Source: Microthyrium microscopicum
Taxonomy: Eukaryota
Assembly (NCBI GenBank): GCA_010405405.1
Contig: MU004232.1
Coordinates: 2,313,481 to 2,377,480, forward strand
Length of the DNA: 64,000 nucleotides
Reading direction: 5' to 3'
Positions within the stretch are counted from its first letter, which is position 1, and each line of letters starts with the position of its first letter. This document shows positions 35,517 to 61,536 of this stretch, one piece after another. The translations under genes and the position numbers were made by a program. The notes under the pieces are model-generated. The model was not told where the DNA came from and searched no databases. It saw nothing but the letters and a program-made list of their open reading frames with translations.

Positions 35517-36243
35517 CTAGTAGTGACGTCCTAAGCGCCCAGTTAGCTCAATTGCGTTCTAAGGTTTCCTCGAATAGAAACTTGCCATTGTTGTAGTATG
35601 GGCGGTTCTCATAACGGTCATTTCGGCCGTTGTGGTTATAATCGCGATAGCCGTTGTAGCCATTGCCACGATAGCCTGGTTTTGTCAGCTGCGTTGATAA
35701 AGTGATGTGGAAGTATCATGAAGATATAATCCACTTGGAGGACCTACCATCACGGTGTTCAAAGCGGTCATTTCGGCCGTTGTGGTTATAATCACGATAT
35801 CCTAGAAGAAATATTAACATTGTTCAAAAGAACCGTGACAAAGTCCCAAGGACTAGAGAATGATATGTCTTACCGTTGTTGTATCGGTCTCCTCTGTACT
35901 CTCCACGGTATGGGCGGTCAGCCTTGAAATTTGTTAGTAAGTTTAGGATTAGACCATCTAGTTTCTTCGTGGTGAGACCTAAAACACCCTTGCATTCAGT
36001 GGGATCCATAGCACACGGTTGGGAACCCGTGCTATGGTAGCCATCGAGTGTTATGGGAGTTGTGATTGTTTTGGTCCCATTTGACAACGTCACGTAAGGT
36101 ACTCTAGCACGGGAATATCGTACCTCAGCAGCTGCGGTGGCTTCGGCAGCTGGAGCCGCAACACTTGCAGCGCTTGCTGGTGCTTGCTCAGCGGCAAAGG
36201 CAACTGATGCCAAGAAGGCGAGGATGACAGACTGGAATTGCAT
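35517..36243 (-). CDS. Small secreted Tyr/Arg/Gly/Asn-rich protein (~108 aa); exons 36243-36124, 35922-35874, 35801-35748, 35675-35586, 35530-35517
   Basis: Signal peptide MQFQSVILAFLASVAFA; TATATAAG ~100 bp upstream; four introns (the last GC-AG) give a continuous frame ending GRHY*. Confidence 0.82.
35923..36123 (-). mobile_element. Candidate introner-like element, copy A (201-nt intron)
   Basis: End-to-end similarity to the intron at 46693-46882; internal hairpin at 36006-36037. Confidence 0.7.
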
Positions 36244-38352
36244 TTTGAAGGTTGGAAAAGAGTGTTGATTGGAAGAAGGACTGTTTGAGTTTGGAAAGCT
36301 GGTGAGTTGATGGAAAGAAATCTAGAGAGCAGGAATCAGGGGCTTATATACCTAGGGAGCTCAGCTACTTCGTCAAGAAGGCAGCATGATACAATCCAGT
36401 ATCGTAAAGTCGAACTTTCTATTTTCGTAGCTTGTCAATACCGAGCTCAGATTGTATTCGGGAAGCCATTGACCAGTTCATGATCATTGCTTTCTGTCTG
36501 ACGTGCCATGAATTCCGTTCTTGTTCAAGTGTGGTCAGATCATGGTTCTCAGAGCAACCCTCTTTGGTCTAGACACTACGAACTAAATGGTAAGCATATA
36601 TTAAATTTCTAGGGATAGCATACATGCGTTCATGCATTTATAGCACTGGTTCGTCAGTGATGTTCGTTGTCTCTGCCAATGGGAAAAATAGCCTAAATTA
36701 AAGATCCATATGTAGCTTTTCCTATGGAGGTATTTGTTCACTATCTCAAAGGATGGGTACGGACGGAAAGCAACGCTATCGGCATGGTTCATTCTTATGA
36801 GCGGTGTAGATGTGTTAATGCTAACATCGGCGGTAACAATTTTAATTGAGACCCCAATGTGTAAGGAACGTGCTCATCTTGTTAGGATGGTATCACGTAT
36901 TCTGTCGATTCTAGGCGCCGTATGGCTTTTGTTGTCGTACGTCGTCGCCACTTGTGGCATCCGTTTCTCCGTGAGGTTATTGCCTTCAAGTCAAGGTCTG
37001 ATATATGAAATGATGAAATAAATTTGCTCTTCGGCGTCATGGCTCATTTGAGTGCCGGGGCAGGCTCATTTCTTCTTCGTATCATGTGGAAAATGACGTG
37101 AAAAGAAAACTCCCATTATGCTCCTCTGCCGCATGCGCATCATCACTGACTTATATACACTCAAAATTCTTCGATTCTACTATTGGATTGAACCATTGCT
37201 GAGATAACTGATAAGAGCAGCCAGGATAACTATCTCTTCTTCTTGGCGCCGAGTACAATTTTGCGCGGTTGGGAGGTAGAGTAACCAGTGTTGACAGAAG
37301 TTTGGGCATTGATCACTTGGGAATCGGTTGAAAGCAATATAACGTTGCCCCGTTGACCGAGAACCGGGGATTCTGGACCCAAATCGACCAGTTTTAGTAT
37401 CAGTGAACCATGGATCATAGCCCGAATATGGGTAGAAGGGCAATCTAAATTGAGCTAATAATGGCAGGTGGCCAGCGTGGGAGTCGCACAACCCTGATTT
37501 TTCCGTCTATCTTCTCGCTTGAAGAGATAAGGAGAACGGAGTCGGAATCCAAATATTCCTGAAATCAAGATAGCAAGATGAGAAGTCCGCCCGATTGCTA
37601 CATCAGAGCCGATATATTGCTCTGAAAAATGCCTGGATCGCTTCATCAATTGAGATATCAAAGCTTCACCATTGATATGCGCTTATCTGTTGCCGCCCCC
37701 ATGAAGCCAAGAATAATTGATTGTGGCCAAACTTGGGTATAGACTGTAGCGTTTACGCCAAAGAATAGTTGTATTGTGTCAATATGTGGCCGGAGAAATT
37801 GACTACCGCAGAGAGAATATGTAACATACTGTTAAGTTCTTCAGACAAGTTGCCATAACAAAGGCACAGTAGGAAGGTTAATGAATAAATGGTTGGTTAC
37901 TTTATTTCGACAGTCATTAACGGAGTCAGACTTTGCCCATAGGAAAGGAAGCCACTGGCAACGTCTAGTTTAAAAAGAGCAAAGAACTGAGACGGAAGTG
38001 AGGAAACGCATGGAACCATATATATCCAGACGTACCTGACCCAAGAACCCGTCTAGCACACTTCCAAGCTATTCAAAGACCTTGGTTCCAGCCAGCACCC
38101 AGAGCTTGTACGATTTGACCCTTGCATAAACGGAGGGCGGTCTGGACGGACCAACAACTTTATAGCCAACCTGAAGCTTTTACGTATAGCACTCGGTGCA
38201 ATATATGAAGACAGCAAAGTTCATTGAAACAAGAACTTCTTTTGGAAATGTACCGAGGTAGCTTACAGATATCCGCCTAATCACTGCATTACCATAGTAA
38301 ACTGCCGCACTGTAGGACTCAGACTAATAGCAAAAACCTACTCTGCTATGAT

Positions 38353-39442
38353 TTAAGTATTGTCTAGCACTACTTTGAGGTCGTCACCGAAACCTGTCTT
38401 CCATGCGGCCTTTCCTCTTGATGGCTTCCAATCTAAGCCTCTAGCAACATTCGAGACAGTGCGTGCGTTACTAGATAGACCCAATTCCACGATACCTTCA
38501 TCGGCAACCCCAAGCTTAAAGAAAGCAGCTTTGTGGCCTCAGATAGGCTCAAGCTTTCTATCTTCTTGGATGCGACTTTGTTCTCTTCCCGTGTAGCATA
38601 CATCAGCCACACCCTGCGCCACCTCCATCCAAGAGTGAGAACCATTTTCACTGAAAATGATCCCATTTTTGCTTTAGGCAATGCTCTACCTCGGTTCTGT
38701 ATAATCTCCCGCACGACGACTATTTTATACAAATCTGCCAGGTCCTCGACGTGGACCTAATTCCTGACACCACTGCCGTCTCCGACCACAACGTCGCGAC
38801 CATGCTTTAGCACAGGCTGTATGTAAGCCGGGATTTGCTGACTGACGCGGTTGAAAAGTCTAGTCCCAATGCCAAACACGTTTGGACTCATGATTACGAG
38901 TATGTTGACGCTAAGTTCTAGTCCAGTATCCACGACTCCCATTTGCACGCTTCGTAGTGGATATGGATGCACTGCATCACGTTCCTGCTCATAGCCATAA
39001 ATGTCGCCCTTGTCATTGTCAAATATGCGTTTTGGTTTTACCCACTTGCCAGAGATATGCTGGTCGGCTAGGATCGAAATGCCGGATGAATGAATATACC
39101 CCACTTCTTGGCTAGTGGTAGCTTTGCCTTGCGCCAGATCTCGAAGAAGAGCTTGCGCTGGAGCCGCGTGCAATCTGTGGGTTGTGCTTATTACTATAGC
39201 GTGCTGAGACGCGGCTGCTGTAGTTACTTTCAGATCGTCAAGATCTTTGTAGAACATTGATTGCACGCGGTCTTCATATGTTGAGGTGATTCTGCCAGCT
39301 CGATCGTGGCCACGAACGAGGCAGGTGATGATAGCATGGCTAAGTGCTGAAGGTGGGATTTGAGAAGTCAAGTAAGCATCGTACCGCCAATGAAGCCTGT
39401 TGACCCAGTCAACAGCATGCGAGGAGCCTCAACGGAAGATAT
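38353..39442 (-). pseudogene. NAD(P)-binding Rossmann/epimerase-like pseudogene
   Basis: LLTGSTGFIGG followed by in-frame TGA (39370-39368); frameshifts; TAG at 38759-38757 just before VHVEDLADLY; probable start decayed to ATA. Confidence 0.82.
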
Positions 39443-39811
39443 GAGCTTGATTGAGAGACAATAACATGTAATTTAGAGTCAAGGATACTTGGAAGTATTG
39501 CCAGTAAAAGTAAAAGATCGAGGTCACATATGTGCTTATGGTTTTGCGTTGGCCAGTCTTGCCAGGGGACACTTTTTAGAGTGGATGAATAAGCCCGAGA
39601 AGAAGCAGAAAGAACATAAAATTAAAACTCTACACATTCACTGCCAGTAACCGTTGAAGTTTTTGAGCCCTTTGGCATGCAGACATAAGGCTGAATATCT
39701 CAGCCTTGCGCTTAGATTGGTCGGTGCTTTTAACCAATCAGGCTCCTGGAACTGCAGGTCGCCCCGCGCACCAAAAATCTGTTTGCTTGCCAGAGATGAA
39801 TTGAGTCACCA

Positions 39812-41242
39812 ATGTCTGCCCGCTCTCGTTTACTTCAGCTTTCGCGTTTTAGCCGTTACAATTCCAACTCTACTAGATCCACTTACCATATCGCCCGTCC
39901 TTCTCGTTTGCTTCTTCAGTCTTCGCCTATAGTGCTGCTACGTCGCAACATGGCTACCGCGTCGCTAAGCCAGCAAGCTCAAGATCTCATCAAATCCTCC
40001 TTCCCTAGTGCATCAGTAGCCCCAGCCGATGGCGCCTCTGCTGTGTCCGCCTCCATCTATCCCCAAGTAACCTACACAGACGCCGAGAAGAAGGAGATTG
40101 AGCAATGGACAAATCTCAGTCCCCAGCTTCAACCAGGAGCTGACGTACTCAATGTGCTCAACAACCATCTCTCAACCCGCACAACTATTCTAGGCACAAA
40201 ACCTTCGGTCGCAGATATTGCTGTATACACCCAGCTAGCTCCTTATGTGAAGAACTGGTCTGCTGAGGAGCGGTCTGGCGAAAAGGGCTACCATCACGTT
40301 GTGCGCCACGTTGATTTCGTTCAGAATGCGGCTGTATTTTTGCTCAACATCAAGGATGCGGACAAGATCGATATTGATCCTTCTGAGGTGACATTCGTTA
40401 TACCACCAATCGACGCCAAGGCTGAGAAGGAGCGGAAGAAGAAAGAGAAGGAAGCTGCAGCTGCAGCTGCTGGAGCTCCTGCTACCGAAGTTGAAGACAA
40501 AAAGAGCACAAAAGAGAAAGTCAAGGAGAAGGTCGAAGGCGCTGCTGGAGCCGTTGCTGGAGCTATACCTGGCACTACAGAGCACAAGAAGAAAGAAAAG
40601 AAGGCAAAAGCACCAAAGCAACCTGCACCACCTCCCAAGGAGAAACCACTCACTCCAGCTCAAATTGACTTGCGCGTGGGCCACATTCTCAAAGCTATTC
40701 AACATCCCAACGCTGATAGTCTCTACGTCAGCACAATTGCAATGGGCGATGCACCAGGCACAGATAACACGTCTGAATACGAAGGCAAGATCGTGCGGAC
40801 AGTCTGTTCAGGTCTTAATGGCTTAGTGCCACTAGAGGAGATGCAAGGTCGTAAGATTGTTACAGTCTGCAACCTAAAACCTGTGACAATGCGAGGCATC
40901 AAGTCGGCCGCCATGGTGCTTGCAGCATCGCCACGAGCCAAAGAAGGCGAGGATGATCATAAGGGTCCAGTGGAGCTCGTCAACCCCCCAGCAGACGCCG
41001 AGGCTGGCGAACGTGTATACTTTGAAGGTTGGGAGGGCGAGCCAGAACCAGTGCTTAACCCCAAGAAGAAGATATGGGAGTCGGTTCAACCAGGCTTCAC
41101 AACAACAGACGATCTTGAAGTGGGCTTCAATGTGGATGATGTTCCACAGCTAAAGGAGTCTGGCAAGACGGGAATTGGAAAGCTGAGAACAAAGCAGGGC
41201 TTATGTACTGTGAAGACGCTGAAGGGTGCCACTGTGCGATAA
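39812..41242 (+). CDS. ARC1: Aminoacyl-tRNA synthetase cofactor Arc1 (GST-like N-domain, Lys-rich linker, OB-fold tRNA-binding domain); second in-frame ATG at 39950
   Basis: IDLRVGHI, HPNADSLYVS, RTVCSGL, CNLKPVTMRGIKSAAMVLAAS, LNPKKKIWE. Confidence 0.92.
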   Translation: MSARSRLLQLSRFSRYNSNSTRSTYHIARPSRLLLQSSPIVLLRRNMATASLSQQAQDLIKSSFPSASVAPADGASAVSASIYPQVTYTDAEKKEIEQWTNLSPQLQPGADVLNVLNNHLSTRTTILGTKPSVADIAVYTQLAPYVKNWSAEERSGEKGYHHVVRHVDFVQNAAVFLLNIKDADKIDIDPSEVTFVIPPIDAKAEKERKKKEKEAAAAAAGAPATEVEDKKSTKEKVKEKVEGAAGAVAGAIPGTTEHKKKEKKAKAPKQPAPPPKEKPLTPAQIDLRVGHILKAIQHPNADSLYVSTIAMGDAPGTDNTSEYEGKIVRTVCSGLNGLVPLEEMQGRKIVTVCNLKPVTMRGIKSAAMVLAASPRAKEGEDDHKGPVELVNPPADAEAGERVYFEGWEGEPEPVLNPKKKIWESVQPGFTTTDDLEVGFNVDDVPQLKESGKTGIGKLRTKQGLCTVKTLKGATVR

Positions 41243-41814
41243 GGCTGGCGTATCGCGGGCAGTCCAAATAATGCTCAGGTTGTCATTGACTGGTTGTCTT
41301 CAGACGTGAGACACGATATACAGTTCATAGTGAGTGGAAATTCGCATAAAGCATACATTGACCACTACATGCAGAGCCGTTTTACTTCATCTGGAATTGT
41401 TAAATTGTGCCACTAGATCAGTGTGATTGCTCAATTCTAGGTAATATAAAGAGTCAGAGGTACCTTAAAGGCCGAGCGGGGTTACCCTGGTATGGAGCTT
41501 GAGGGCATCAACTTCACTTGTTTGCTTGGGACTGACCTCCAGCCTAACCACTAGCTACACAACCTTTGTGTCATTTTGGTACGCTTTAAAGCGCACCTTC
41601 AACCAACATTTGATCTCGTTGTGATGACTCTAAATTCACTGCTGCTGAGCATTTCATCCACGACCTTTCAACTGGAGGGCAATGCTCTACGCCAAAGCAA
41701 CCCCAATAGCATTCGCCACTGACTGACTTCGAGGAACACGTTCCTCCTCAAAAGCTGAGGATATCAGCTTGATCAGAGCTGTCGTGCCGAAATTCGTTAG
41801 TCCGTACCTTCGCC

Positions 41815-44109
41815 ATGGCTAATCACTACGACTATTTTCGTAATTCTTCCTGGCGGGACATTCTGCGTCCAATACGCGATGGCCTTGACAATATAAGAGA
41901 ACGAATCCCTGACCTTCGTCCATATGACCCAACTGAGGACAACTTGAGAAAACGCAAGCGCCAGGATGACGCTCTCCAAGGCTTTGCCTACATAGAGTCA
42001 TTTGACGATCTTCTCTCTTGGAGACCAGAACATGCGGATCCCATTCAGAAAAGCAGCACTCCACTACTACAGCGCACTGCATCTCTGAACCCTACGAAGG
42101 ACCAGCCTCCAGGAGCGAAGGTACTTGTTTGTCACGACTGTAGCGGCGGCTATCATCCATACGAGGCAGTAGTACTCAATCAAATTGAACATGAAGATTT
42201 CTCCCTGGAATATCTGCAGTTTGTAGAGACCTTCGTTTACTTTTCCCACCGGCTGGTCACAATCCCCCCTCCCAGCTGGACTAACACATTACATCTAAAT
42301 GGAGTTCTGTCGCTTGGCACCTTCATCGTGGAGCCAGGTACAAAGCGCGCCGAAGAGATATTCCATTATACGACCAACTCGGACAGCACCAAATATTTTC
42401 CCGTTGCAGAACAGTTAGCAGCTATTGCTGAAGCTTATGGCTTTGATGGATGGCTCATCAACATTGAAAAGACATTTACGCAGAACTCATGGGACCTTGA
42501 TGCTATGATAGGCTTCCTCAAGGCCTTGCGAGGCAAGATGGGCCCAACTCGAAAGCTAGTATGGTATGACTCTTTAACCGTGGGCGGAAGAGTACGATAT
42601 CAAAATGCTTTGACGTACTCGAATTTACCTTTCTTCGAGACATGTGGCAACATCCTCACCAACTATGCGTGGGAACCCTCCATGATCGAGATGTCCAAAG
42701 CTGTGGCTAAGAACAGTGGCGTGTCTGTGGCCAACATCTACTTTGGTGTGGATGTATGGGCCCAAAACAAGCCAGTGGATAAATACCATCCTCGTGTCAG
42801 CTTTCCTCAGAATAGAGGAGGAGGAGGTACTAACACTGGCGTTGCAGTCAGTGAGTGTCGCAATCAAGGCGTCAGTTCTGGTATCTTTGCTCCAGCTTGG
42901 GCATATGAACACTTCAAGTTGCCCGAAGATGGTCCTACGGTCTCTCGTTGTATGTGGGAAGGAGAACCTCTACCAAAAGAAGTCGAATGCGAATGCTATG
43001 GTGGTAGACCAAATGCAGCAATGTGCCACTTTACGCATCGAACAGATGCTTCCATCACAAGATCGGCTCTGGAATATCCTGCTGGTTCCGAAGACTTCTT
43101 CTGGACCGACTTTTGCAAAGCTTTCAGCCAACGGACAATACGCCCAGACTCAAGCTCGGCAAGAACTGAAATTAACGCCCACCTAGGATCTCAGAGCGTA
43201 CTCCCACGGCAATGGCGCGCCAAAAACGAATGGCGACATCGCCAGCTTACGATGAAACTGATAGGACACAATCCATCTCGAGCAGTGATCGGTCTTCCCA
43301 GGTCTGATAACGTCACCGAGACCATTAACCGAATGGAGCTCTTCGCCTTGCGCCTGCGAATACCGCACAAGAAGGAGCATAAACAACTTCAAATCACCAT
43401 CCACTACAATATTTGCCAACTTGGTCATCGAGTCAATCTTATAATTCACAAATCAAATGGCGAATCACCCATCACCCAAACCCTTCCCAGCGATCAGGAA
43501 TCCACCACCATCGTACTCATAGGTGGCCCGCCACACTCCAATAACGACGAACAAGAATACGTCACTAGTATTGGCATTGCAACTCAAGGTGGCCACCAGT
43601 CGATCACCTTCCCCCCCTCACAAGGCCCACGTCTTAATCCAGAGCCGATCGTAGAAATCACCAATATCCGCGCCTGCCACACCACCACTGAGCCCGACGA
43701 CGGTGAAACCGTCGATATCTGTCTTGACGACGATGACTCCCCACCAAAAGCCCTCTCCATCCAAATTCAAAATGTTCCAGAAACACCATACATGTCCCAG
43801 CACATCCGTGTATCATGGGAGCTGAATAATACTGCACTCAACGGCCCAGATGATGGACTACTTGTTCCTCGATCGAAACTCACTGGCCAGATGGCGTATT
43901 TCAATGTCTGGATTGACGATGAGTTTCTGACTCGGGTTTATGGCTTGGAGATGGTGCTGCCTAGAGGCTATATTGAGCGGTGGCAGTCGTATAAAGGGAT
44001 CAGAGTGCGAGTAGATTGTGTAAGATTTGGTGGGGAGGTTTGGGAGGGAAGCTGGTTTGCGTTGACGGCGGCGGATGCGGAGTGGGTTGTTGTCGACGGT
44101 GATGTTTAG
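41815..44109 (+). CDS. GH85 cytosolic endo-beta-N-acetylglucosaminidase (764 aa)
   Basis: LVCHD, FVYFSH, PPPSWTN, GFDGWLINIE (catalytic N-x-E), WYDS, NYAW, GVDVW, FAPAWAYE. Confidence 0.92.
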   Translation: MANHYDYFRNSSWRDILRPIRDGLDNIRERIPDLRPYDPTEDNLRKRKRQDDALQGFAYIESFDDLLSWRPEHADPIQKSSTPLLQRTASLNPTKDQPPGAKVLVCHDCSGGYHPYEAVVLNQIEHEDFSLEYLQFVETFVYFSHRLVTIPPPSWTNTLHLNGVLSLGTFIVEPGTKRAEEIFHYTTNSDSTKYFPVAEQLAAIAEAYGFDGWLINIEKTFTQNSWDLDAMIGFLKALRGKMGPTRKLVWYDSLTVGGRVRYQNALTYSNLPFFETCGNILTNYAWEPSMIEMSKAVAKNSGVSVANIYFGVDVWAQNKPVDKYHPRVSFPQNRGGGGTNTGVAVSECRNQGVSSGIFAPAWAYEHFKLPEDGPTVSRCMWEGEPLPKEVECECYGGRPNAAMCHFTHRTDASITRSALEYPAGSEDFFWTDFCKAFSQRTIRPDSSSARTEINAHLGSQSVLPRQWRAKNEWRHRQLTMKLIGHNPSRAVIGLPRSDNVTETINRMELFALRLRIPHKKEHKQLQITIHYNICQLGHRVNLIIHKSNGESPITQTLPSDQESTTIVLIGGPPHSNNDEQEYVTSIGIATQGGHQSITFPPSQGPRLNPEPIVEITNIRACHTTTEPDDGETVDICLDDDDSPPKALSIQIQNVPETPYMSQHIRVSWELNNTALNGPDDGLLVPRSKLTGQMAYFNVWIDDEFLTRVYGLEMVLPRGYIERWQSYKGIRVRVDCVRFGGEVWEGSWFALTAADAEWVVVDGDV

Positions 44110-44322
44110 ATGGAATCATTGCGGTCTGTCAGCATGGTTCTATTTCGGGCTATGAGCCGGGATACCGGTGCCCATATCCATGAGTGATATGGTTTCTACT
44201 GAATCTTGAGCCTATTGAAGTAGTTGTCAAAGTCAACTTTCAAATCTGTTCATGTTCATTGCTGATATCGGTCGTTGAGTCTTTGAGAGCTACTAACGAG
44301 CAACCTAGAGTAGAAACTACTT

Positions 44323-44725
44323 CCTTTTCAAGGATAAGATAAGTGAGCCGTTTTCGACTACTACTCCCATCGGCTACGATAGCTGCCATAACACTTCTTA
44401 CAGAGCGATTGCTTTAAATCCCATCGGCATCGAAGAACTTACATCAGATTATCGAATACGATGGCTGCCATAACACTTCTCAAAGTGTGATTGCTTTATT
44501 TGCCATCAGCGTTGAAGAATTTGCATCAGATTATCGAATTTGATCGCTGCCATAACACTTCTTGAAGAGCGACTGCTTTAATTCCCATTGGCGTCAAAGA
44601 ACTTATATCAGATTATTGAGTAAGACGGTAAATCAATGCAGTCACTCTTTAAGAAGTGCTATGTCAGCCATCGTAATCGATGGGAACTTCATCCAAACGG
44701 GTCACTTATTTTGTCCCTGGCGAGA
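44323..44725. mobile_element. MITE copy 1 (~400 bp) with an internal 82-bp triplication
   Basis: Left GGATAAGATAAGTGAGCCGTTT, right AAACGGGTCACTTATTTTGTCC; internal units at 44378, 44460 and 44542; homologous to 46351-46582. Exact ends approximate. Confidence 0.82.
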
Positions 44726-44948
44726 CTGCTTTAGGAAGGAAGGACTCTGGGGAGGGAAGGGACGCCTCGAGAAATCACAGGTCTTCCCACAAACTTCAAG
44801 GCTGGAATTGAACCTTCATCTCTCCAACCTTCACTCTCCATACTTCAACTTCCATCATTTAGCCTCCAGCCTCCAGCCTTCAACCATCCGGTATCTTCAG
44901 TTCTACATTCATTGCCCGCAGCAAATCGCTGCCTAATCAAGCGCAACA

Positions 44949-46067
44949 ATGTCACAGGAAGCGCCTCCACCAAAGCGTCGAATTACAGGCTACCACTCTG
45001 AGGCTCCATACTCTTTTAACGACTCTCAGGTCGACGATATCGTTCGCGTCTGCAGCTACCACCGGCGAGACCACGACTACTCCGTCATCTGGTTTCATCC
45101 TAGCACACACACGCCAGTAGGAAATCTATGCGACTGCAAGCCCCGCGAATCCAACTTTACACTTGGAACCATCGAGAAGCTACCAGTAGAGTTGATTCAG
45201 CAAATTGTCCTAGGCCTAGACATTGAGAGTCTATTTCGTTTCCGCCAAACTTGCTCCAGAGCCCGAGAACTTATCGACAATCTACACGAATATCGCGCAA
45301 TAACGAGTCACGCCCTCAACACATTTCTTGCGCTCCTACGAACCGAATCAGCATCGCAGGTCTCGTTGTTGCGGTTCTATCAGCTTCTTTGCTTTAATGA
45401 GTGTGCATTCTGCCCATCTTTTGGCAATTTCGTTCATCTACTACGCTGGTGTCGCTGTTGCTATGATTGCCTCATCCTGTCAGGCTATGTGACAGCTCTC
45501 CCTTCCAACCTTCAGAACATTCCAATACGCAGTCTTCCGTATCTCGAAACTCTTCCTGGGCTGTACTCCACAAACTTGCTCGAAGAGAATCCCTACACAG
45601 AACGAACCTTGCTTGCGACACCTGAAAATATTGCGACAGCTTATCAGCAACAAAATGCTGAAGAAGATGTAATTGGCGGAAGACTGGAGTGGCCAAAGGA
45701 GAAACGTGTATGGCGCTTCATGGCTTGCTGTGCGATACTGTCCTTTGACCCAAAAACGAACAAAGTCGAGAGCGGCATATCTTGCTCCGGATGTGAACTT
45801 GCCTTTGACGAAGGCCATTTCTCTGACGATAAAGACCAAGACGAAGAAGAACTTGCACAGGAAGTTGTTGGGTATTGCAATAAAGTATATTCAACCACGT
45901 CGTACTTGGAGCATTTTGCTTGGTGCCATCACGCCCAAGCTCTATGGATCGCAAGCAGCAGCGAATCCGTTCGGCCTGCCAATCTTCCTCAAATGTGTCA
46001 AGATGGCGGCTTTTTGAGGGCAAGAGATCAGGATTTCTGGGTTTCGGCTGTTCCTTATAAATTTTGA
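44949..46067 (+). CDS. F-box domain protein with Cys-rich motifs (372 aa, intronless)
   Basis: LGTIEKLPVELIQQIVLGLDIESLFRFRQTC F-box; CxxC...RCCYDC; ISCSGC...LEHFAWC. Confidence 0.85.
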   Translation: MSQEAPPPKRRITGYHSEAPYSFNDSQVDDIVRVCSYHRRDHDYSVIWFHPSTHTPVGNLCDCKPRESNFTLGTIEKLPVELIQQIVLGLDIESLFRFRQTCSRARELIDNLHEYRAITSHALNTFLALLRTESASQVSLLRFYQLLCFNECAFCPSFGNFVHLLRWCRCCYDCLILSGYVTALPSNLQNIPIRSLPYLETLPGLYSTNLLEENPYTERTLLATPENIATAYQQQNAEEDVIGGRLEWPKEKRVWRFMACCAILSFDPKTNKVESGISCSGCELAFDEGHFSDDKDQDEEELAQEVVGYCNKVYSTTSYLEHFAWCHHAQALWIASSSESVRPANLPQMCQDGGFLRARDQDFWVSAVPYKF

Positions 46068-46161
46068 TACCTCTTAAGGCCCTCGATGTCTCATTGCCGC
46101 GCTCATCCTGTATCCATCGGCAAGATCTACCAAAAGCCTAAAGAGTTCTCCGTAGATAGAC

Positions 46162-48197
46162 TTATCCTACACGACTGAATTTCACGATCAATTTTCCGCC
46201 AACTGGTCCCGCTATTACCGCATTTTCTGATTGCTGGATGTCATCATCATCAACTATCGTGATTTTGAAGTTCGTATAGATAGCTGCCAATAACAGCTTC
46301 AAGACTGCCAATGTGTTAGCAAGGTGAAGGAAAATGAGCCCGGTAATCTAACTCTTTGGGGACAAAATAAGTGAGCCGTTTCGACGACTATTCCTATGTA
46401 TTACGATGGCCGCCCTAATATTCATTCAAGAGTGACTACTTTGTTTACCAACGAAGTCTATAATATAAGTTTTACGACGCTGATAGGGATTGTAGCAGTC
46501 ACTCTTCAAGAAGTATTATGGCAGCCATAGTAATAGATGGGAACTCGTACCAGACGGCTCACTTATTTTGTCCTTGAGGAGTCTACTTACTCAACACCAT
46601 AAGGTGATTTCCAATACACATTCTACTCCCACTGCCAAATGTCCAGAACCACCGACGAGGATTAGATTCCGCATCCTGCTTCTCCATGTTACCTGAAATT
46701 TGTTAGTACAGGATTACGCTCAAAGCTCACACCGTGAAACACCCATCGCATTCTGTGCAATCCACAGCATTCGATTAAGAACGCATTCTATGGTAGGCAT
46801 TGGGTACGATGTGAGATATGGTCATTTTCGTTCCAATGGATGTCGTCGTCAAGAGATGTGCTTTGACATGGGAAAATCTCACCCCCAGCTTTACCATCCT
46901 GAGTATCCTCAGCGCACCTCCACCTCTCTGGCTTCCACTCTTCTGGTTCTGAAAACGCAGCGCTGTTGCGATTCAGACAATGTGACGATGAATGGATCGT
47001 TACACCAGGCGGTATGAAGTAGTTGTCAATAGTCGCTCCTCCTTCAGGCACTACGCGGCGTAGAGGAACTTGGGTGGTAGGATATAGACGTAATGTTTCG
47101 GTCAGTATTGCGTCTAGGAGAGGTAGTTTGTCAAGCCCTCGCAATATCGACTCTGACACTTCCTTTGAACCAGCAGGATAAATCAAAGGCGGTTCTAACG
47201 TCATCAGCTCTTTACGCAAAGCTGCTTCAAGCAGTGGTTGCTTTGACAGCTCGTGTATGGCGTAAGTCAGGGTAATCGCGCTGCCTTCTCTACCAGCGTC
47301 CAAATTATCAAGAAATTCTGAAGCGATGTGATGAAGTAGTTCTTCTTGGTCTGTGATTCCTTCTTTGCTTGGGATCAGCTCCCTCATTTGAGCGAAAACA
47401 ACTGGATGTGAGCTGGTTTCAACTTCGTTCGACCCAGAGGCAGCTTTCTCCATGGATCTCTTTGCCCTCTTACACATCTGGAGAACTTCCTCTTCTGATT
47501 CCTCGACAGCCAATTTGATATCATCTGTTATCTTAGCACCCATAAGCGGACTCAGCTTCTTCTTCGCATTCTCCAGATACTTCCTTTGCACCAATTCCTT
47601 TCCCTTCCCAAGCAAATTAAAACCATTCTGAACACCAACCATATAAGCACTCAGAAACTCAACTCCCGCCGCCGCACCAAGATTCAAAACATTAACCTCC
47701 TCTCTACTTCTCGTCACACTATCCAGATATGGGAAGAACCTCTCAAACAACAACACGCCAGCCAAAATCCGAAAATCCTCAGACCCTAGGATATACGACT
47801 TCGTGTAAACAGGAGCCAGAATTCTCTTTCTCACAGAATGTTCCTTCTTGACAAGCATCGAGCTCAAGTTCGGCACCTCACCAAACGCACGAACCTGCAA
47901 AAACCACTCATGGCGATCCCAGCTCCCAGCATAGATCTTGCGTAGGCCGTCGAGTGAGTTCACTGATACTTCATTGGGTCCTAGGCGTACCACTGGGCCA
48001 AGCTGTTGGTGGGCTTTGTGGATGGTGCGAACTTCGTGGCCTTGGCGTCGTTTCCATGTTATCCAGAGAGAGGAAATGGAGGAGGTGGGGTGTGCGAAGG
48101 GGACTTTGGAGAAGGGGGTGAAGAATGCTGGGTGGAGGATGTAGGTGTAGAGAAGGGAGAGGAAGATTGTGACTGTGAGGATGATAATAACACTCAT
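46162..48197 (-). CDS. Cytochrome P450; exons 48197-46883, 46692-46591, 46304-46162
   Basis: N-terminal TM anchor, GPVVRLGPNEVS, ETLR (ExxR), PERW, heme motif WTFGSGSRMCIG in exon 2. Confidence 0.9.
46351..46582. mobile_element. MITE copy 2 (232 bp) inside P450 intron 2, flanked by a CTA direct repeat
   Basis: ~80-bp imperfect TIRs (GGACAAAATAAGTGAGCCGT / ACGGCTCACTTATTTTGTCC); ends ACTC...GAGT; CTA at 46348-46350 and 46583-46585. Confidence 0.88.
46693..46882 (-). mobile_element. Candidate introner-like element, copy B (190-nt P450 intron 1)
   Basis: End-to-end similarity to the intron at 35923-36123. Confidence 0.7.
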
Positions 48198-57123: not shown

Positions 57124-57372
57124 ACTAGACCCGATGCAGACTTAGCGTCGAAATGCAGAGTACAGGGCTCAAGTCTTGGCGGTCTACTTTTTTTCGATCT
57201 CGACCTTCCAATCGTCACGAAGATACATTTAGCATACACTCCTCATCGCCATACCCCTTATTCTCCCTCTTCTAATTCTCTCCTTGTTGCATTACTTCTC
57301 AGTCGGTGCTCTTAGTTGTTAATCTTTGTTCTATTGCATGGCTGTCGTTATACCCCCCTTATAGTACTCGAA

Positions 57373-60300
57373 ATGCTCACACGAGCAACGAGATCGACTC
57401 TTCGCAAGACTCCAGTACTCCTCTCCAAAGCCGCATGGCCGTATCGAGTCTCAAAATCATTGGGCGCATCGTCAATATGGTTCCACTCCTCTCCACACAC
57501 ATTCGAACCGCACCTTCCCGATAACCCAAAGTCGTCCCATCGAACAGGGGCAAAAGCGAGCCCAACGCGCTCCATCTCAACCGCCGTCGATGGCTTCAAT
57601 TTCTCTGGCTCTCATCACATGCTTCTCGATACCTTGCCTCCTCCTAGTTCCAATATGTCCACTTTCATGCCGCTATGGGATTATACTAGAGGAACTGAGT
57701 TGCATAAAAGGGATGCCCTTCTTGGCCAAAACATCGAAGAGTCACTGAAGAATCTTCGCGCATGTCTAGCTGTTGGCAGGTTCGATCGTGCGGAGGCTAT
57801 ATTCCGTCGACTTGCCAAGCAATCAATATTCAATGTAGCAGAAGTATTGGAGGCCAACAACACATACGTGCGAAGCATGGTACATGGACTTTTCCGGGGC
57901 CAAGATGGAGTCGCCCTCAGGAAATTGCAGATGTGGTTCGAGGTGGACATGAGACAGCTTGGAATTTCCCCAGATGCTACCACACTGGCTCTGATGTGTC
58001 GATCTGCGTTTTTGCTCGCCAGCGAAAAGTCTCGCGACCGGACGTTACGGCGTTATCTATGCATTGCTGAGGAGGCTGGAATACTACACGAGACAATCGA
58101 ATCCGGAGAATACCTCCCGCACGAGTTCAATCAAATCGCTCGAGCCCGGGAAGACCTATTTGAACAATTGCCCGAAGAGGTTGATCAGACGGCCGACGAA
58201 GTACAATTCAGCTCTGCCCCGGTCCCGGCGCCGCCAGCTGTAGTACTGAATCCCGCCTCTCAGCGAGGATACGGACTAGAAACTCTACTTAAGGGCCTCC
58301 GATCTCTTCACACGGACGACAGTGTCGCGCAGTTGGACGACCACCAGCGCAGTAATTGGCAAATCAGCCTAGAAGAGGACATTGTCACAGCAGAACTGGA
58401 GCGCTGGAGACTTGAGCACGCGGCTATACTTAAAATGGGTATCAATCCTGCTTTATCCTCAAAATCCATGGAAGCACTTATGTGGGAGTGGCAGGACAAG
58501 TTGACCAAGGAGATAAAGGCTTACTTATCAAGTATATCCAAAAATTCACCAAAATATGTACATGGCGACGGACCTTATTTGGAGCAAATTGGGCCTCAGA
58601 AGTTAGCTGCTATCACCATCATCGAAACTATCAGGACTTTGACTTGCGAAGGCATTTCCGACGGCGCTCCTGTCTTTCGCGTAACGGACAACTTGGGAAA
58701 ATCTCTTGAGATGCAGAGTTCAGTCGATAATATTCAAAATCGACAAGAAACTAAATTACGGCATGCCAAAAGTGGACAACGAAACAAGATGATGAAAACA
58801 CTTCGAGTCAACAAGGGTATCGAAACGAATTTGGGTAAAGGGGGTCTCATTCCCCTAGAGACAAAGTTAGCTCGAGAACGTCGATCTGACGAATGGCCCA
58901 AGGTTGCTAGGTTTCGAAGTGCGGCATTACTCTTGTCAAAGTTGATCGAAGTGGCCCGGTTCCCCAAAAAACAGACTAATGTGGAGAGTGGAACAAAAGC
59001 ACGTGTGGAGAGCACTCTTGCCTTCTCTCATGCCATTATACGAGTGAACGGGAAGAAAAAGGGAATGCTATACGTTGACCAAGAGCTAGCAAAACGACTT
59101 ACTAAAGAACCTCCGCCATGCAATATGGCTCATCAACTGCCAATGGTTGCTCCACCAGAATCGTGGTCTGATTTCACTGGAGCTTATTTACGATATCCTG
59201 CCAACCTGATGCGATTAAAGGATCCTAGCGGAATTCAAGACATGTATCTTCATGCTGCAATTGAAAATGGCAATCTGGGAAAGGTTTTTGCAGGACTGAA
59301 CGTATTGGGCAAAACGGAATGGCGGATTAACAGAGCAGTATTCGAAGTGATGGCTAATACCTGGAACTCAGGCGAGGCCGTCACAAACTTTCCCGCCTCC
59401 AACCCATCCTTAGAGCTTCCCCAAGAACCTGAGGAATCCGCCATACCATTGACAAAGTTCAAATGGAAGCGAGAATGTCAACGGCTTCAGAATGAGTATA
59501 ACGGCTTCCACTCGAATCGCTGCTATATGAACTTGCAAATGGAAATTGCTCGCGCTTTCCTTGGTCACACGTTCTTTCTCCCACATAACATGGATTTTCG
59601 AGGCCGGGCATATCCAGTTGCTGGTATATTTCATCACATGGGAGCAGACAATGCTCGTGGGCTGTTTCAATTCGCCAAAGGGAAAGCTCTTGGTGAGGAG
59701 GGCCTTTTCTGGCTCAAGGTACATCTCTCTAACACCTTCGGATTCGACAAAGCCAGCTTAGAGGAACGTGCCCAATTTACCATGGATCATCTCGACGATA
59801 TCAAGGATTCTACCCAAAATCCACAGAACGGTCGAAGATGGTGGTTGAAAGCCGATGATCCGTGGCAATGTCTAGCAACATGTTTTGAACTTCTTGCTGC
59901 TATGGAATCACCAGATCCAAAAGAGTACATCTCTCACCTCCCTGTTCATCAGGATGGGACCTGCAATGGGTTACAGCATTACGCTGCTCTTGGTGGTGAC
60001 GAGTTGGGTGCTGCTCAGGTCAACCTCATTCCTAAAGACAGACCAGGTGATATCTATAGCGAGGTTGCGCGGCTAGTCAAGGCAGATGTCGAAAAAGATT
60101 CTGAGGCGGGGAATCCGATCGCGAAGATTCTGCATGGGAAAATTTCCCGGAAGTTGGTCAAACAACCAGTGATGACCTACGTCTATGGTGTTACCTACTT
60201 TGGCGCTCGAGCTCAACTTCAAAAGCGCCTTGATGAGATCATTGTTGATTCTCCAAGCAACGAGATCAGAAATTTTACCATCGCAGTTTATCTCACCAAG

Positions 60301-61536
60301 AAGGTGTTCACTCACTTTGGAACTATGTTTTCTGGCGCAACCAGAATACAACATTGGCTGGCTGAATGCGCTGGCCGCATATCTACCGCCGTCACTCCAG
60401 AACAGGTTGAAAAAATTCGAAAACTCAACATGGAAAAGGAAAGGCAAGCCGGCAAGATACTGAAAAAGAAGGACCACTTTCTCAAGTTCCAGTCTGGAGT
60501 TGTGTGGACGACGCCTTTAAATCTTCCGGTTGTCCAGCCTTATCGCGAAGTCGACAAGACTAAATCAGTAGCTACCGCCTTGCAATCGTTCAACATCTTT
60601 TTTCCCAGTGTCAATGATAGTGTGCACAAGCGCAAGCAGATGGCTGGATTTCCTCCAAACTTTGTCCATTCCCTCGATGCTACACACATGCTACTTTCCG
60701 CACTCAAATGCGATCAGCTCGGTCTCAGCTTTGCGTCTGTCCACGACTCTTTCTGGACACATGCTGCCGATGTGCCAACTATGAGCAGAGCTCTTCGCGA
60801 CGCTTTTGTAGAGATCCATGGCGAAGATGTGATTGGTCGATTGGCTGAGGAGTTCAAGACCCGATACAAGCGGTCCATGTATCGACTATCCTGTCCCTCA
60901 TTGAGTCCACTTGGCCTTCAGATAAGAAAGCTGCGAGCTGAGCGAAGAAAGGGATATGGAAGGGGGAAGAACAACCTTGGAGCTCCCGTCAAGGAAAAGC
61001 TTGGGAGGGATGAGATGATTGATGAATACGATCGTCTTTCACTCCTACAATCCGAAGACCCGGCAGAGAGAGCGAAAGGCGAAGCTATGGTCACCCCAGG
61101 CAGTCTTTTCGCCGCTCTTGGACCTGAACATCATGACCTCTTACATCCCGTTGATCTCCAGAAGTTGCTCAATCCGGAAGACACCTCCGTTGACCACAGC
61201 ATTGATGCCGTCCCTGCTGAAGAACTCGAGGCGGCTTCTCACAACAATATCGACGCCGCTCCCGAAGAAGAGATTGAGGCAGCTTCAGACCACAATATTG
61301 ATGCTGCTCTCGAAGAAGAGATGGAGGCTGCGCCAGACCACAATACCGACGATGCTCCTGAAGAAGAGATTGAGGCAGCCACCGAAGAGCAGAGCGAAGC
61401 AGTCCCCGGGGTGAAAAAGGCCAAAAGACCTCACACCAAGACATACTTCTGGGTACCACTTACCTTCCCCACCGTTCCACAAAAAGGCAGCTTTGATGTT
61501 CAAATCGTCAAGGACAGCACGTATTTCTTTTCATAA
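57373..61536 (+). CDS. RPO41: Mitochondrial T7-like DNA-directed RNA polymerase (intronless)
   Basis: Presequence; DFRGRAYP, HQDGTCNGLQHY, RKLVKQPVMTYVYG, FPPNFVHSLDA, VHDSFWT, C-terminal YFFS. Confidence 0.97.
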   Translation: MLTRATRSTLRKTPVLLSKAAWPYRVSKSLGASSIWFHSSPHTFEPHLPDNPKSSHRTGAKASPTRSISTAVDGFNFSGSHHMLLDTLPPPSSNMSTFMPLWDYTRGTELHKRDALLGQNIEESLKNLRACLAVGRFDRAEAIFRRLAKQSIFNVAEVLEANNTYVRSMVHGLFRGQDGVALRKLQMWFEVDMRQLGISPDATTLALMCRSAFLLASEKSRDRTLRRYLCIAEEAGILHETIESGEYLPHEFNQIARAREDLFEQLPEEVDQTADEVQFSSAPVPAPPAVVLNPASQRGYGLETLLKGLRSLHTDDSVAQLDDHQRSNWQISLEEDIVTAELERWRLEHAAILKMGINPALSSKSMEALMWEWQDKLTKEIKAYLSSISKNSPKYVHGDGPYLEQIGPQKLAAITIIETIRTLTCEGISDGAPVFRVTDNLGKSLEMQSSVDNIQNRQETKLRHAKSGQRNKMMKTLRVNKGIETNLGKGGLIPLETKLARERRSDEWPKVARFRSAALLLSKLIEVARFPKKQTNVESGTKARVESTLAFSHAIIRVNGKKKGMLYVDQELAKRLTKEPPPCNMAHQLPMVAPPESWSDFTGAYLRYPANLMRLKDPSGIQDMYLHAAIENGNLGKVFAGLNVLGKTEWRINRAVFEVMANTWNSGEAVTNFPASNPSLELPQEPEESAIPLTKFKWKRECQRLQNEYNGFHSNRCYMNLQMEIARAFLGHTFFLPHNMDFRGRAYPVAGIFHHMGADNARGLFQFAKGKALGEEGLFWLKVHLSNTFGFDKASLEERAQFTMDHLDDIKDSTQNPQNGRRWWLKADDPWQCLATCFELLAAMESPDPKEYISHLPVHQDGTCNGLQHYAALGGDELGAAQVNLIPKDRPGDIYSEVARLVKADVEKDSEAGNPIAKILHGKISRKLVKQPVMTYVYGVTYFGARAQLQKRLDEIIVDSPSNEIRNFTIAVYLTKKVFTHFGTMFSGATRIQHWLAECAGRISTAVTPEQVEKIRKLNMEKERQAGKILKKKDHFLKFQSGVVWTTPLNLPVVQPYREVDKTKSVATALQSFNIFFPSVNDSVHKRKQMAGFPPNFVHSLDATHMLLSALKCDQLGLSFASVHDSFWTHAADVPTMSRALRDAFVEIHGEDVIGRLAEEFKTRYKRSMYRLSCPSLSPLGLQIRKLRAERRKGYGRGKNNLGAPVKEKLGRDEMIDEYDRLSLLQSEDPAERAKGEAMVTPGSLFAALGPEHHDLLHPVDLQKLLNPEDTSVDHSIDAVPAEELEAASHNNIDAAPEEEIEAASDHNIDAALEEEMEAAPDHNTDDAPEEEIEAATEEQSEAVPGVKKAKRPHTKTYFWVPLTFPTVPQKGSFDVQIVKDSTYFFS
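61192..61383 (+). repeat. 48-bp x4 coding minisatellite (acidic 16-aa unit) in RPO41
   Basis: Units at 61192, 61240, 61288 and 61336; consensus DHNIDAAPEEEIEAAS. Confidence 0.92.

Follow-up and report, generated by a model that had tools for sequence, protein, structure and literature searches.

Background

Where new spliceosomal introns come from is an old open question. Among fungi, the main candidate source is the introner-like elements (ILEs), the long, structured and multiplying spliceosomal introns of Dothideomycete fungi, whose mode of spread is unknown. The ILEs of Dothideomycetes were reportedly treated by van der Burgt et al. in 2012, and introners derived from DNA transposons are said to have been described by Huff et al. 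in 2016. Here we take up the question at a single locus, a 64-kb stretch of contig MU004232.1 of Microthyrium microscopicum (the window, below), in which a predicted intron of a gene for a small secreted repeat protein (copy A) and an intron of a cytochrome P450 gene (copy B) resemble one another. Has a whole intron been copied into two unrelated genes, or were two older introns each struck by the same repeat? We found that the two sequences are homologous from donor to acceptor, that copy B is spliced, and that further copies of their core are present elsewhere in the genome. In our view A and B are probably, though by no means certainly, diverged and aged members of an introner-like family in M. 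microscopicum.

Copies A and B, in unrelated genes, are homologous from donor to acceptor

Aligned end to end with MAFFT, from GT to AG, copies A and B show 126 identical, 61 mismatched and 17 gap columns, which amounts to 67% identity over 187 aligned positions and a Kimura two-parameter distance of 0.44. The global score of the pair is 47, and 1000 dinucleotide-preserving shuffles yielded a mean of 1.8, a standard deviation of 1.15 and a maximum of 8. Local alignment gave a score of 48 against a shuffle maximum of 17. The homology of A and B is real and runs from end to end.

The individual segments of the alignment were also scored separately. The 5' flank, taken without the donor hexamer, scores 5 between A and B, a value matched by none of 5000 shuffles, and the score of the core, in which 68 of 99 positions are identical, was likewise reached in none of 5000. 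At the 3' end, A and B share without mismatch a 15-mer, TACTAACAAATTTCA, that runs from the branch point to the acceptor. A pattern search of the window for this 15-mer recovered eight matches at up to three mismatches; only A and B match at zero, and no third site in the window matches with fewer than three. Likewise, an nhmmer search of the window with a profile built from A and B gave strong scores for these two only. The splice signals are GTACGA, TACTAAC and AAG in A and GTGAGA, TACTAAC and CAG in B, the acceptor of A being one A longer than the CAG of B. Since the similarity passes beyond the hairpin in the core (described below) to reach the splice sites, what has been repeated is the intron itself rather than an insert alone.

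The two copies sit in genes that are not related to one another. Exon 1 of the P450 gene is 100% identical to the public protein P0001, whose source name is cytochrome P450 of Microthyrium microscopicum, and the other host encodes a repeat protein whose sole homologue is itself. Both copies are long for this neighborhood, at 201 and 190 nt against the 72, 72 (gene A) and 54 nt (P450 intron 2 minus an inserted repeat) of the three supported introns on which the local length rests, or about 2.6-3.7 times as long. A heuristic census of introns (92 candidates, median 193 nt) was dropped, as false positives dominate it.

Most of this had been anticipated by a first-pass annotation made from the sequence alone, which proposed homology of the two introns from donor to acceptor. 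Its count of 24 matches in the first 36 nt is exact, its core of about 95 nt at roughly 70% identity corresponds to the 68 of 99 given above, and TAATCCT occurs in both copies, as does the exact 15-mer at the 3' end. It was also right about the phases (0 for A, 1 for B) and about the unrelated flanking exons. Its estimate of about four times the local intron length stood as to direction and was too high as to size.

Copy B is spliced and was gained

Two sets of contigs bear on splicing. One, X5, comes from a run guessed to be RNA; the other, X4, consists of DNA contigs of the source genome, retrieved at a minimum likeness of 80%. A 2900-nt X5 contig covers 43508-46304 and then 46591-46693 without mismatch, skipping P450 intron 2 exactly, and as it thereby removes a 286-nt intron, X5 contains spliced RNA. 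At intron B itself, one X5 contig stops at 46693 and another starts at 46881. Past 46883 the spliced and unspliced forms of B both continue with GT, and both have G ahead of 46692; given these shared letters, the breaks fall precisely where a donor at 46882 and an acceptor at 46693 would make the two forms branch. The donor of the public model, at 46894, predicts a branch at 46891, where the X5 contig of exon 1 crosses unbroken. The X4 DNA contigs pass 46881 without a break, so the breaks are specific to RNA. Read depth in X5 is 38-51 inside intron B as against 134-157 in the exon contigs. Intron B is spliced and is a real intron.

This moves the exon border away from the annotated one. The donor used by P0001 (GTAAAG) lies 12 nt upstream of the GTGAGA donor, in the region 46882-46894, and across the junction P0001 reads ...DTQDG/NMEK where the GTGAGA donor gives ...DTQDGKAGG/NMEK. 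Given the latter donor, the real P450 would carry four more residues (KAGG) than P0001.

The P450 family also provides a view of the history of this site. We aligned 28 P450 homologues, of which 18 are unspliced reading frames and 10 are spliced models or uninformative. Each of the 18 frames (18/28) crosses the site of B from the start codon without interruption or extra residues, and the same 18 run into 'GK...' junk or a stop right after the haem-loop motif, which is the site of intron 2 in the window. The point at which these unspliced frames turn to junk indicates that the position of intron 2 is widely shared among other fungi and that the site of B is intron-free in all 18. On this comparison of reading frames, intron B is lineage-specific and was gained. 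Its date is only loosely constrained, because the nearest P450 relative outside the species is 48% identical. At the neutral rate for ascomycete introners of 1.3e-8 per site per year, found in the accessible part of PMC12130899, the distance between A and B corresponds to about 17 million years, which is a rough figure.

Further copies in the genome

Contigs from outside the window show that the core is repeated. Nine X4 contigs at 46765, ten at 46770 and seven at 46797 lie on the core of B and differ from it, and at these three positions their letters are those of copy A; A is thus nearer to the family consensus than B. At 36023, where one X4 contig differs from A, the depth summed over contigs amounts to about five times that of a single contig locally. 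A third member is seen in an X4 contig that connects 36049 with 46826 across 20 intervening letters. On the side of B it extends over 58 letters as far as 46883, one base beyond the donor, and it has the 3-nt gap of A at 46844. A second chimeric joint in X4 connects 36058 to 46762. Further, at least three X5 contigs lie on the core of B and differ from it, which indicates that members of the family are transcribed. Hence, the core occurs in more copies elsewhere in the genome, of which at least one extends to the edge of the donor. The coordinates of the features in the window are collected in Table 1.

Table 1. Features of the two copies, their host genes and the neighboring inverted-repeat elements, in window coordinates
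Feature	Position	Strand	Remarks
Copy A	36123..35923	minus	201 nt, GTACGA...TTTCAAG; inside small secreted repeat-protein gene; predicted phase-0 intron
Copy B	46882..46693	minus	190 nt, GTGAGA...TTTCAG; phase-1 intron of cytochrome P450 gene
Place of copy B in the P450 gene	46693..46882	minus	directly 5' of the haem-loop exon
Shared 15-mer TACTAACAAATTTCA, copy A	35925..35939	minus	branch point to acceptor; pattern match
Shared 15-mer TACTAACAAATTTCA, copy B	46694..46708	minus	pattern match
Imperfect hairpin in copy A	35973..36079	minus	38 pairs, over intron positions 45-151
Decayed hairpin core of copy B	46737..46835	minus	21/38 of the pairs of A kept, outer stem deleted
Host gene A, secreted Y/R/G/N-repeat protein	35551..36243	minus	public model P0121, 183 aa
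Other introns of gene A	35873..35802 and 35747..35676	minus	72 nt each
Host gene B, cytochrome P450	46162..48197	minus	exon 1 48197..46883, exon 2 46692..46591, exon 3 46304..46162
P450 intron 2	46305..46590	minus	286 nt, exactly removed in RNA-derived contig
MITE-like element, in P450 intron 2	46351..46582		about 232 nt, TAG on both sides
Second copy of the MITE-like element, intergenic	44330..44718		three internal 82-nt tandem units

A hairpin kept in A and decayed in B

The core of copy A folds into an imperfect hairpin with an outer stem formed by GGGACCAAAACA and TGTTTTAGGTCTC; the first 44 and the last 50 nt of the intron lie outside it. The predicted minimum free energy of A is -52.1 kcal/mol (z -2.81), a stability equaled by 2 of 200 shuffles. 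In B, 17 of the 38 pairs are broken or deleted. Folding thus predicts that A keeps a long stable hairpin and that B has lost most of it. Rfam gave no match in the window at the gathering score and none on either intron at E up to 1. A scan of metagenomes with a pattern for the hairpin (13 + 7 specified bases) returned three loci, which by eye are chance matches in unrelated coding-looking DNA and were set aside.

A co-resident inverted-repeat element resembles the core

P450 intron 2, next to copy B, carries an element resembling a miniature inverted-repeat transposable element (MITE), and a second copy is intergenic. The element has 29-nt terminal inverted repeats that contain GGACAAAATAAGTGAGCCGT. 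The copy in P450 intron 2 leaves with that intron, which without the element is the 54-nt intron counted above. The family is abundant, with 14-18 X4 contigs differing from the window at 44381, 44481, 44659, 44664, 46391 and other positions.

The core of A shows some likeness to an arm of this element. The two are identical at 42 of 64 ungapped positions, with a local score of 20 against a maximum of 15 in 500 shuffles, and in the window A is connected to the element by blastn at E 0.004 and the A/B profile by nhmmer at E 0.011. The 17-mer GATGGCTRCCATARCAC, a pattern written post hoc, matches A and five sites of the element at up to two mismatches, and on a reading of the sequences the outer stem of A resembles the terminal repeat of the element. 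In the reverse direction, a profile made from the element alone has A as its best outside match, at E 0.078, and does not find B in the window; B taken alone shows no significant likeness to the element. From these comparisons, kinship of the A/B core with the MITE-like element is a genuine possibility, though one that we would stop short of calling likely.

A DNA transposon might also be expected to betray itself at its borders. By eye, GCTGA forms direct repeats around a G plus intron A, and GTAA does so around a 199-nt block made of nine exon bases and intron B, the removal of which yields public model P0001. These candidate duplications imply different borders for A and B, and two aged copies give little power. 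The inverted repeat does not lie at the ends of the intron but inside it (positions 45-151 of A), and on a reading of the sequences the 5' flank does not complement the 3' flank. Separately, each donor has an AGCTG 9-10 nt ahead of it, perhaps by chance, the exon of A being rich in Ala codons.

It is conceivable, and on present evidence unlikely, that the family was built around, or descended from, a hairpin element with terminal inverted repeats of which the same genome still has abundant copies. If true, the fungal ILEs, so far outliers without transposon hallmarks, would gain a DNA-transposon root, and the window would hold three stages side by side, with the element free at 44330-44718, lodged in an old intron at 46351-46582 and forming a whole intron in A and B.

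Comparison with known introners

Two reports (Collemare et al. 2013, PMC3609843; Collemare et al. 2015, PMC4457414) define ILEs as introns that recur in many copies across unrelated genes, have canonical splice signals and about twice the normal length, show low folding energy and compensatory changes, are tied to intron gains and decay fast into ordinary introns. High-copy ILEs are further held to number from tens to hundreds of introns, the starting set being more than doubled by a search with a profile, and active families reach 98-99% identity between copies. Of these features, whole-intron similarity in unrelated hosts, excess length and, for B, gain are all found here; splicing is seen in one copy only (B), as is stable structure (A). 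Near-identity is absent, at 67%. As to copy number, the window has two copies, 7-10 further contigs cover the core, and one further copy reaches the donor. In Dothistroma septosporum, old ILE families of low identity are described in the accessible part of PMC4457414, and the 67% identity of A and B therefore marks age rather than exclusion.

The closest parallel is with the Dothideomycete ILEs themselves. M. microscopicum belongs to the same fungal class, and as in those elements whole introns with canonical donor, branch point and acceptor sit in unrelated genes, have 2-4 times the ordinary length, show stable structure (A), gain (B) and decay (B), and lack a consistent target duplication. 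They differ in the identity of 67%, in the annotation of A as coding, in a core that may be kin to a terminal-inverted-repeat element, and in that Microthyriales are not among the reported hosts. With the DNA-transposon introners, as described in the portions available of PMC9860276 and PMC12130899, what they share is an element that recurs as an intron in unrelated genes, and an internal inverted repeat that here resembles a co-resident non-autonomous inverted-repeat element; in contrast to those introners, the inverted repeat is not terminal and there is no consistent target-site duplication. The sister (stw)introns of Hypoxylaceae (Fekete et al. 2021, PMC8469720) are fungal introns that have likewise proliferated; they are strongly symmetrical within and carry no duplications at their flanks, and a symmetrical RNA or DNA structure has been suggested there to act in their spread. 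However, theirs are terminal inverted repeats of 45-55 nt with a nested intron in the donor, whereas the symmetry of A and B is internal and without a nested intron. Finally, a MITE inserted in an existing intron is seen in the very same gene, in the 232-nt element of P450 intron 2, but the similarity of A and B extends past the hairpin to the splice sites and the site of B is otherwise intron-free.

Weighing the explanations

Several observations weigh against regarding A and B as aged members of an introner-like family. Their 67% identity is far below the near-identity of active families, and just two full copies are readable, so that the remaining copies may be intergenic. The 3' flank before the branch point is not significant when A and B are compared there alone (717 of 5000 shuffles), the AAG acceptor of A is weak, and a spliced-junction contig for B is absent among the contigs listed. 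The fold of B equals that of its shuffles (z -0.71), and compensatory change is found in only 2 of the 38 hairpin pairs, two sequences being too few to test this. Public model P0121 translates all of copy A as coding, and A indeed consists of 67 in-frame codons with no stop, as do 461 of 20000 of its shuffles. The likeness of the core to a terminal-inverted-repeat element points to a DNA transposon and not to an RNA route. Lastly, in the available portions of two genome-wide surveys, Gozashti et al. 2022 (PMC9860276) score M. microscopicum with 0 introners, and Gozashti et al. 2025 (PMC12130899) also score 0 and place Microthyrium under 'absent genera'.

As given in the accessible description, the method of these surveys requires four or more annotated introns whose BLAST similarity starts at most 5 exonic or 10 intronic bases from both borders. 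A is not annotated as an intron and the annotated donor of B is 12 nt off the RNA-supported one, so both would fail these criteria. These two annotations, together with the age of the copies, suggest why the surveys reported none, and annotation-based surveys may therefore undercount aged families. In the part of the 2022 table available (PMC9860276), Dothistroma septosporum, with its known old elements, also scored 0. A full-text literature search for the species name together with intron returned nothing on introners, as far as titles and the openings of abstracts go. An introner-like family here adds a lineage, the Microthyriales, for which the two surveys reported no introners.

The first-pass annotation had read both sequences as introns, had placed them in an aged introner-like family and had expected more copies genome-wide. 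The last expectation was borne out by the 7-10 further X4 contigs on the core. As to introns, B is spliced, and A is translated by its public model and is without RNA coverage. The family itself draws support from the splicing of B, its gain and the additional copies; that A is spliced too, and that the other copies are mostly introns, is what we infer.

The main competing account, to which we give a low but appreciable chance, is a rare low-copy duplication of an intron around a hairpin repeat, of the 'low-copy intron' class of Collemare et al., with the other matches being the hairpin repeat alone and not introns. The extra contigs do lie mostly on the core (7-10 at 46765-46797), with one other in the 5' flank, at 46844; the core resembles the co-resident inverted-repeat element; and low-copy duplicated introns in unrelated genes were reported from almost every one of 24 fungi (PMC3609843, Table 1). 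Thin coverage of the 5' flank is, however, expected either way, as a minimum likeness of 80% misses the diverged flanks of old copies, and the third copy has the 5' flank of B right up to the donor border. Moreover, duplicated introns of that kind have ordinary length and folding energy (PMC3609843), whereas A and B are long and A is strongly structured.

Because of the likeness of the core to the inverted-repeat element, a DNA-transposon origin stays open. On this account, A and B would be copies of a non-autonomous DNA transposon that makes an intron on insertion, an introner as understood by Huff and by Gozashti and a relative of the family at 44330-44718 and 46351-46582, and would have spread at the DNA level by cut-and-paste or copying. 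We consider this improbable. The match of the core of A to an arm of the element (42/64, blastn E 0.004, nhmmer E 0.011), the post hoc pattern GATGGCTRCCATARCAC shared by A and five element sites, the outer stem of A that looks like the terminal repeat, and the short direct repeats GCTGA (A) and GTAA (B) speak for it. Yet the inverted repeat lies inside, at a distance of 44 and 50 nt from the intron ends, and the outer flanks are homologous between A and B and not inverted; the two candidate duplications give differing borders, and each could be chance; and the profile of the element alone reaches A at E 0.078 and misses B, which by itself is not similar. Ascomycete introners are, moreover, an outlier group generally without such signatures in the accessible part of PMC9860276.

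That two old unrelated introns were each struck by the same repeat, with the insert alone being homologous, is very improbable. Such an insertion is at hand next door, where P450 intron 2 holds a 232-nt inverted-repeat element between TAGs, and cases of this kind were noted in three fungi (PMC3609843), but in A and B the 5' flank beyond the hairpin is similar (0/5000), the 3' 15-mer is identical and unique in the window to these two, and the site of B is intron-free in 18 of 28 homologues. The least credible account, a conserved intron-hosted non-coding RNA (a small nucleolar RNA or a microRNA-like hairpin), which the first-pass annotation had offered as its alternative and which the stable hairpin of A and the family members in RNA-derived contigs might recall, has against it the lack of any Rfam match (window at gathering score; introns at E up to 1), the decay of the hairpin in B, conservation that takes in the splice-site flanks, and the many diverged copies in the genome.

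How the family may have spread

If A and B are aged members of an introner-like family, a spliceosomal intron would have been copied into unrelated genes as a complete unit, from the donor flank through the hairpin core to the branch point and acceptor, with decay to follow. We infer that this spread could have followed a reverse-splicing route that has been proposed for ascomycete ILEs, in which spliced intron RNA enters another transcript or gene by reverse splicing, and the inserted intron is reverse-transcribed and then fixed through recombination. Such a route would leave no target-site duplication. The hairpin may assist the reverse-splicing step, and could itself stem from the co-resident inverted-repeat element. 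If confirmed genome-wide, kinship with a co-resident hairpin transposon would bear on the debate between RNA and DNA routes of intron multiplication in fungi.

Copy A and its host gene

The reading frame of gene A has as its sole database match its own public model P0121, a hypothetical protein of M. microscopicum. Gene A and intron A have no coverage of their own in the X5 contigs, which are silent on their expression. Copy A may be retained, or spliced part of the time. It may also be a copy that, stop-free and in frame, stays in the mRNA, in which case the element adds 67 residues to a secreted protein.

A phmmer search with the 67-aa reading of A against 1.84 billion representatives returned itself and three weak matches, which were not used. 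The best of these, P0122, is a 715-aa frame of tandem units of about 55 aa (...GYHxHLSQPCVLPKNYC...); its single matches to the hairpin reading of A have pairwise E of about 1e-4, a weak likeness that repetition has probably inflated.

Exon 1 of gene A, which holds the signal peptide and an Ala-rich part, is met by one other DNA contig of the source genome at 36204-36208, with three single-base gaps, a hint that the genome has a paralogue, or else another low-complexity exon of this kind. Gene A also contains a 50-nt direct repeat, 35603-35652 and 35753-35802, 88% identical and 150 nt apart, which represents its repeated GYRDYNHNGRNDR coding units.

Other repeats in the window

Two further repeats lie far from both copies. 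At 1212-1762 there is a tandem repeat of three 193-nt copies, 179 nt apart and 93-99% identical. At 61192-61379, a repeat with a period of 48 nt comprises three overlapping 92-nt copies, 74-76% identical, and sits in an open frame of 1406 codons, 57316..61536.

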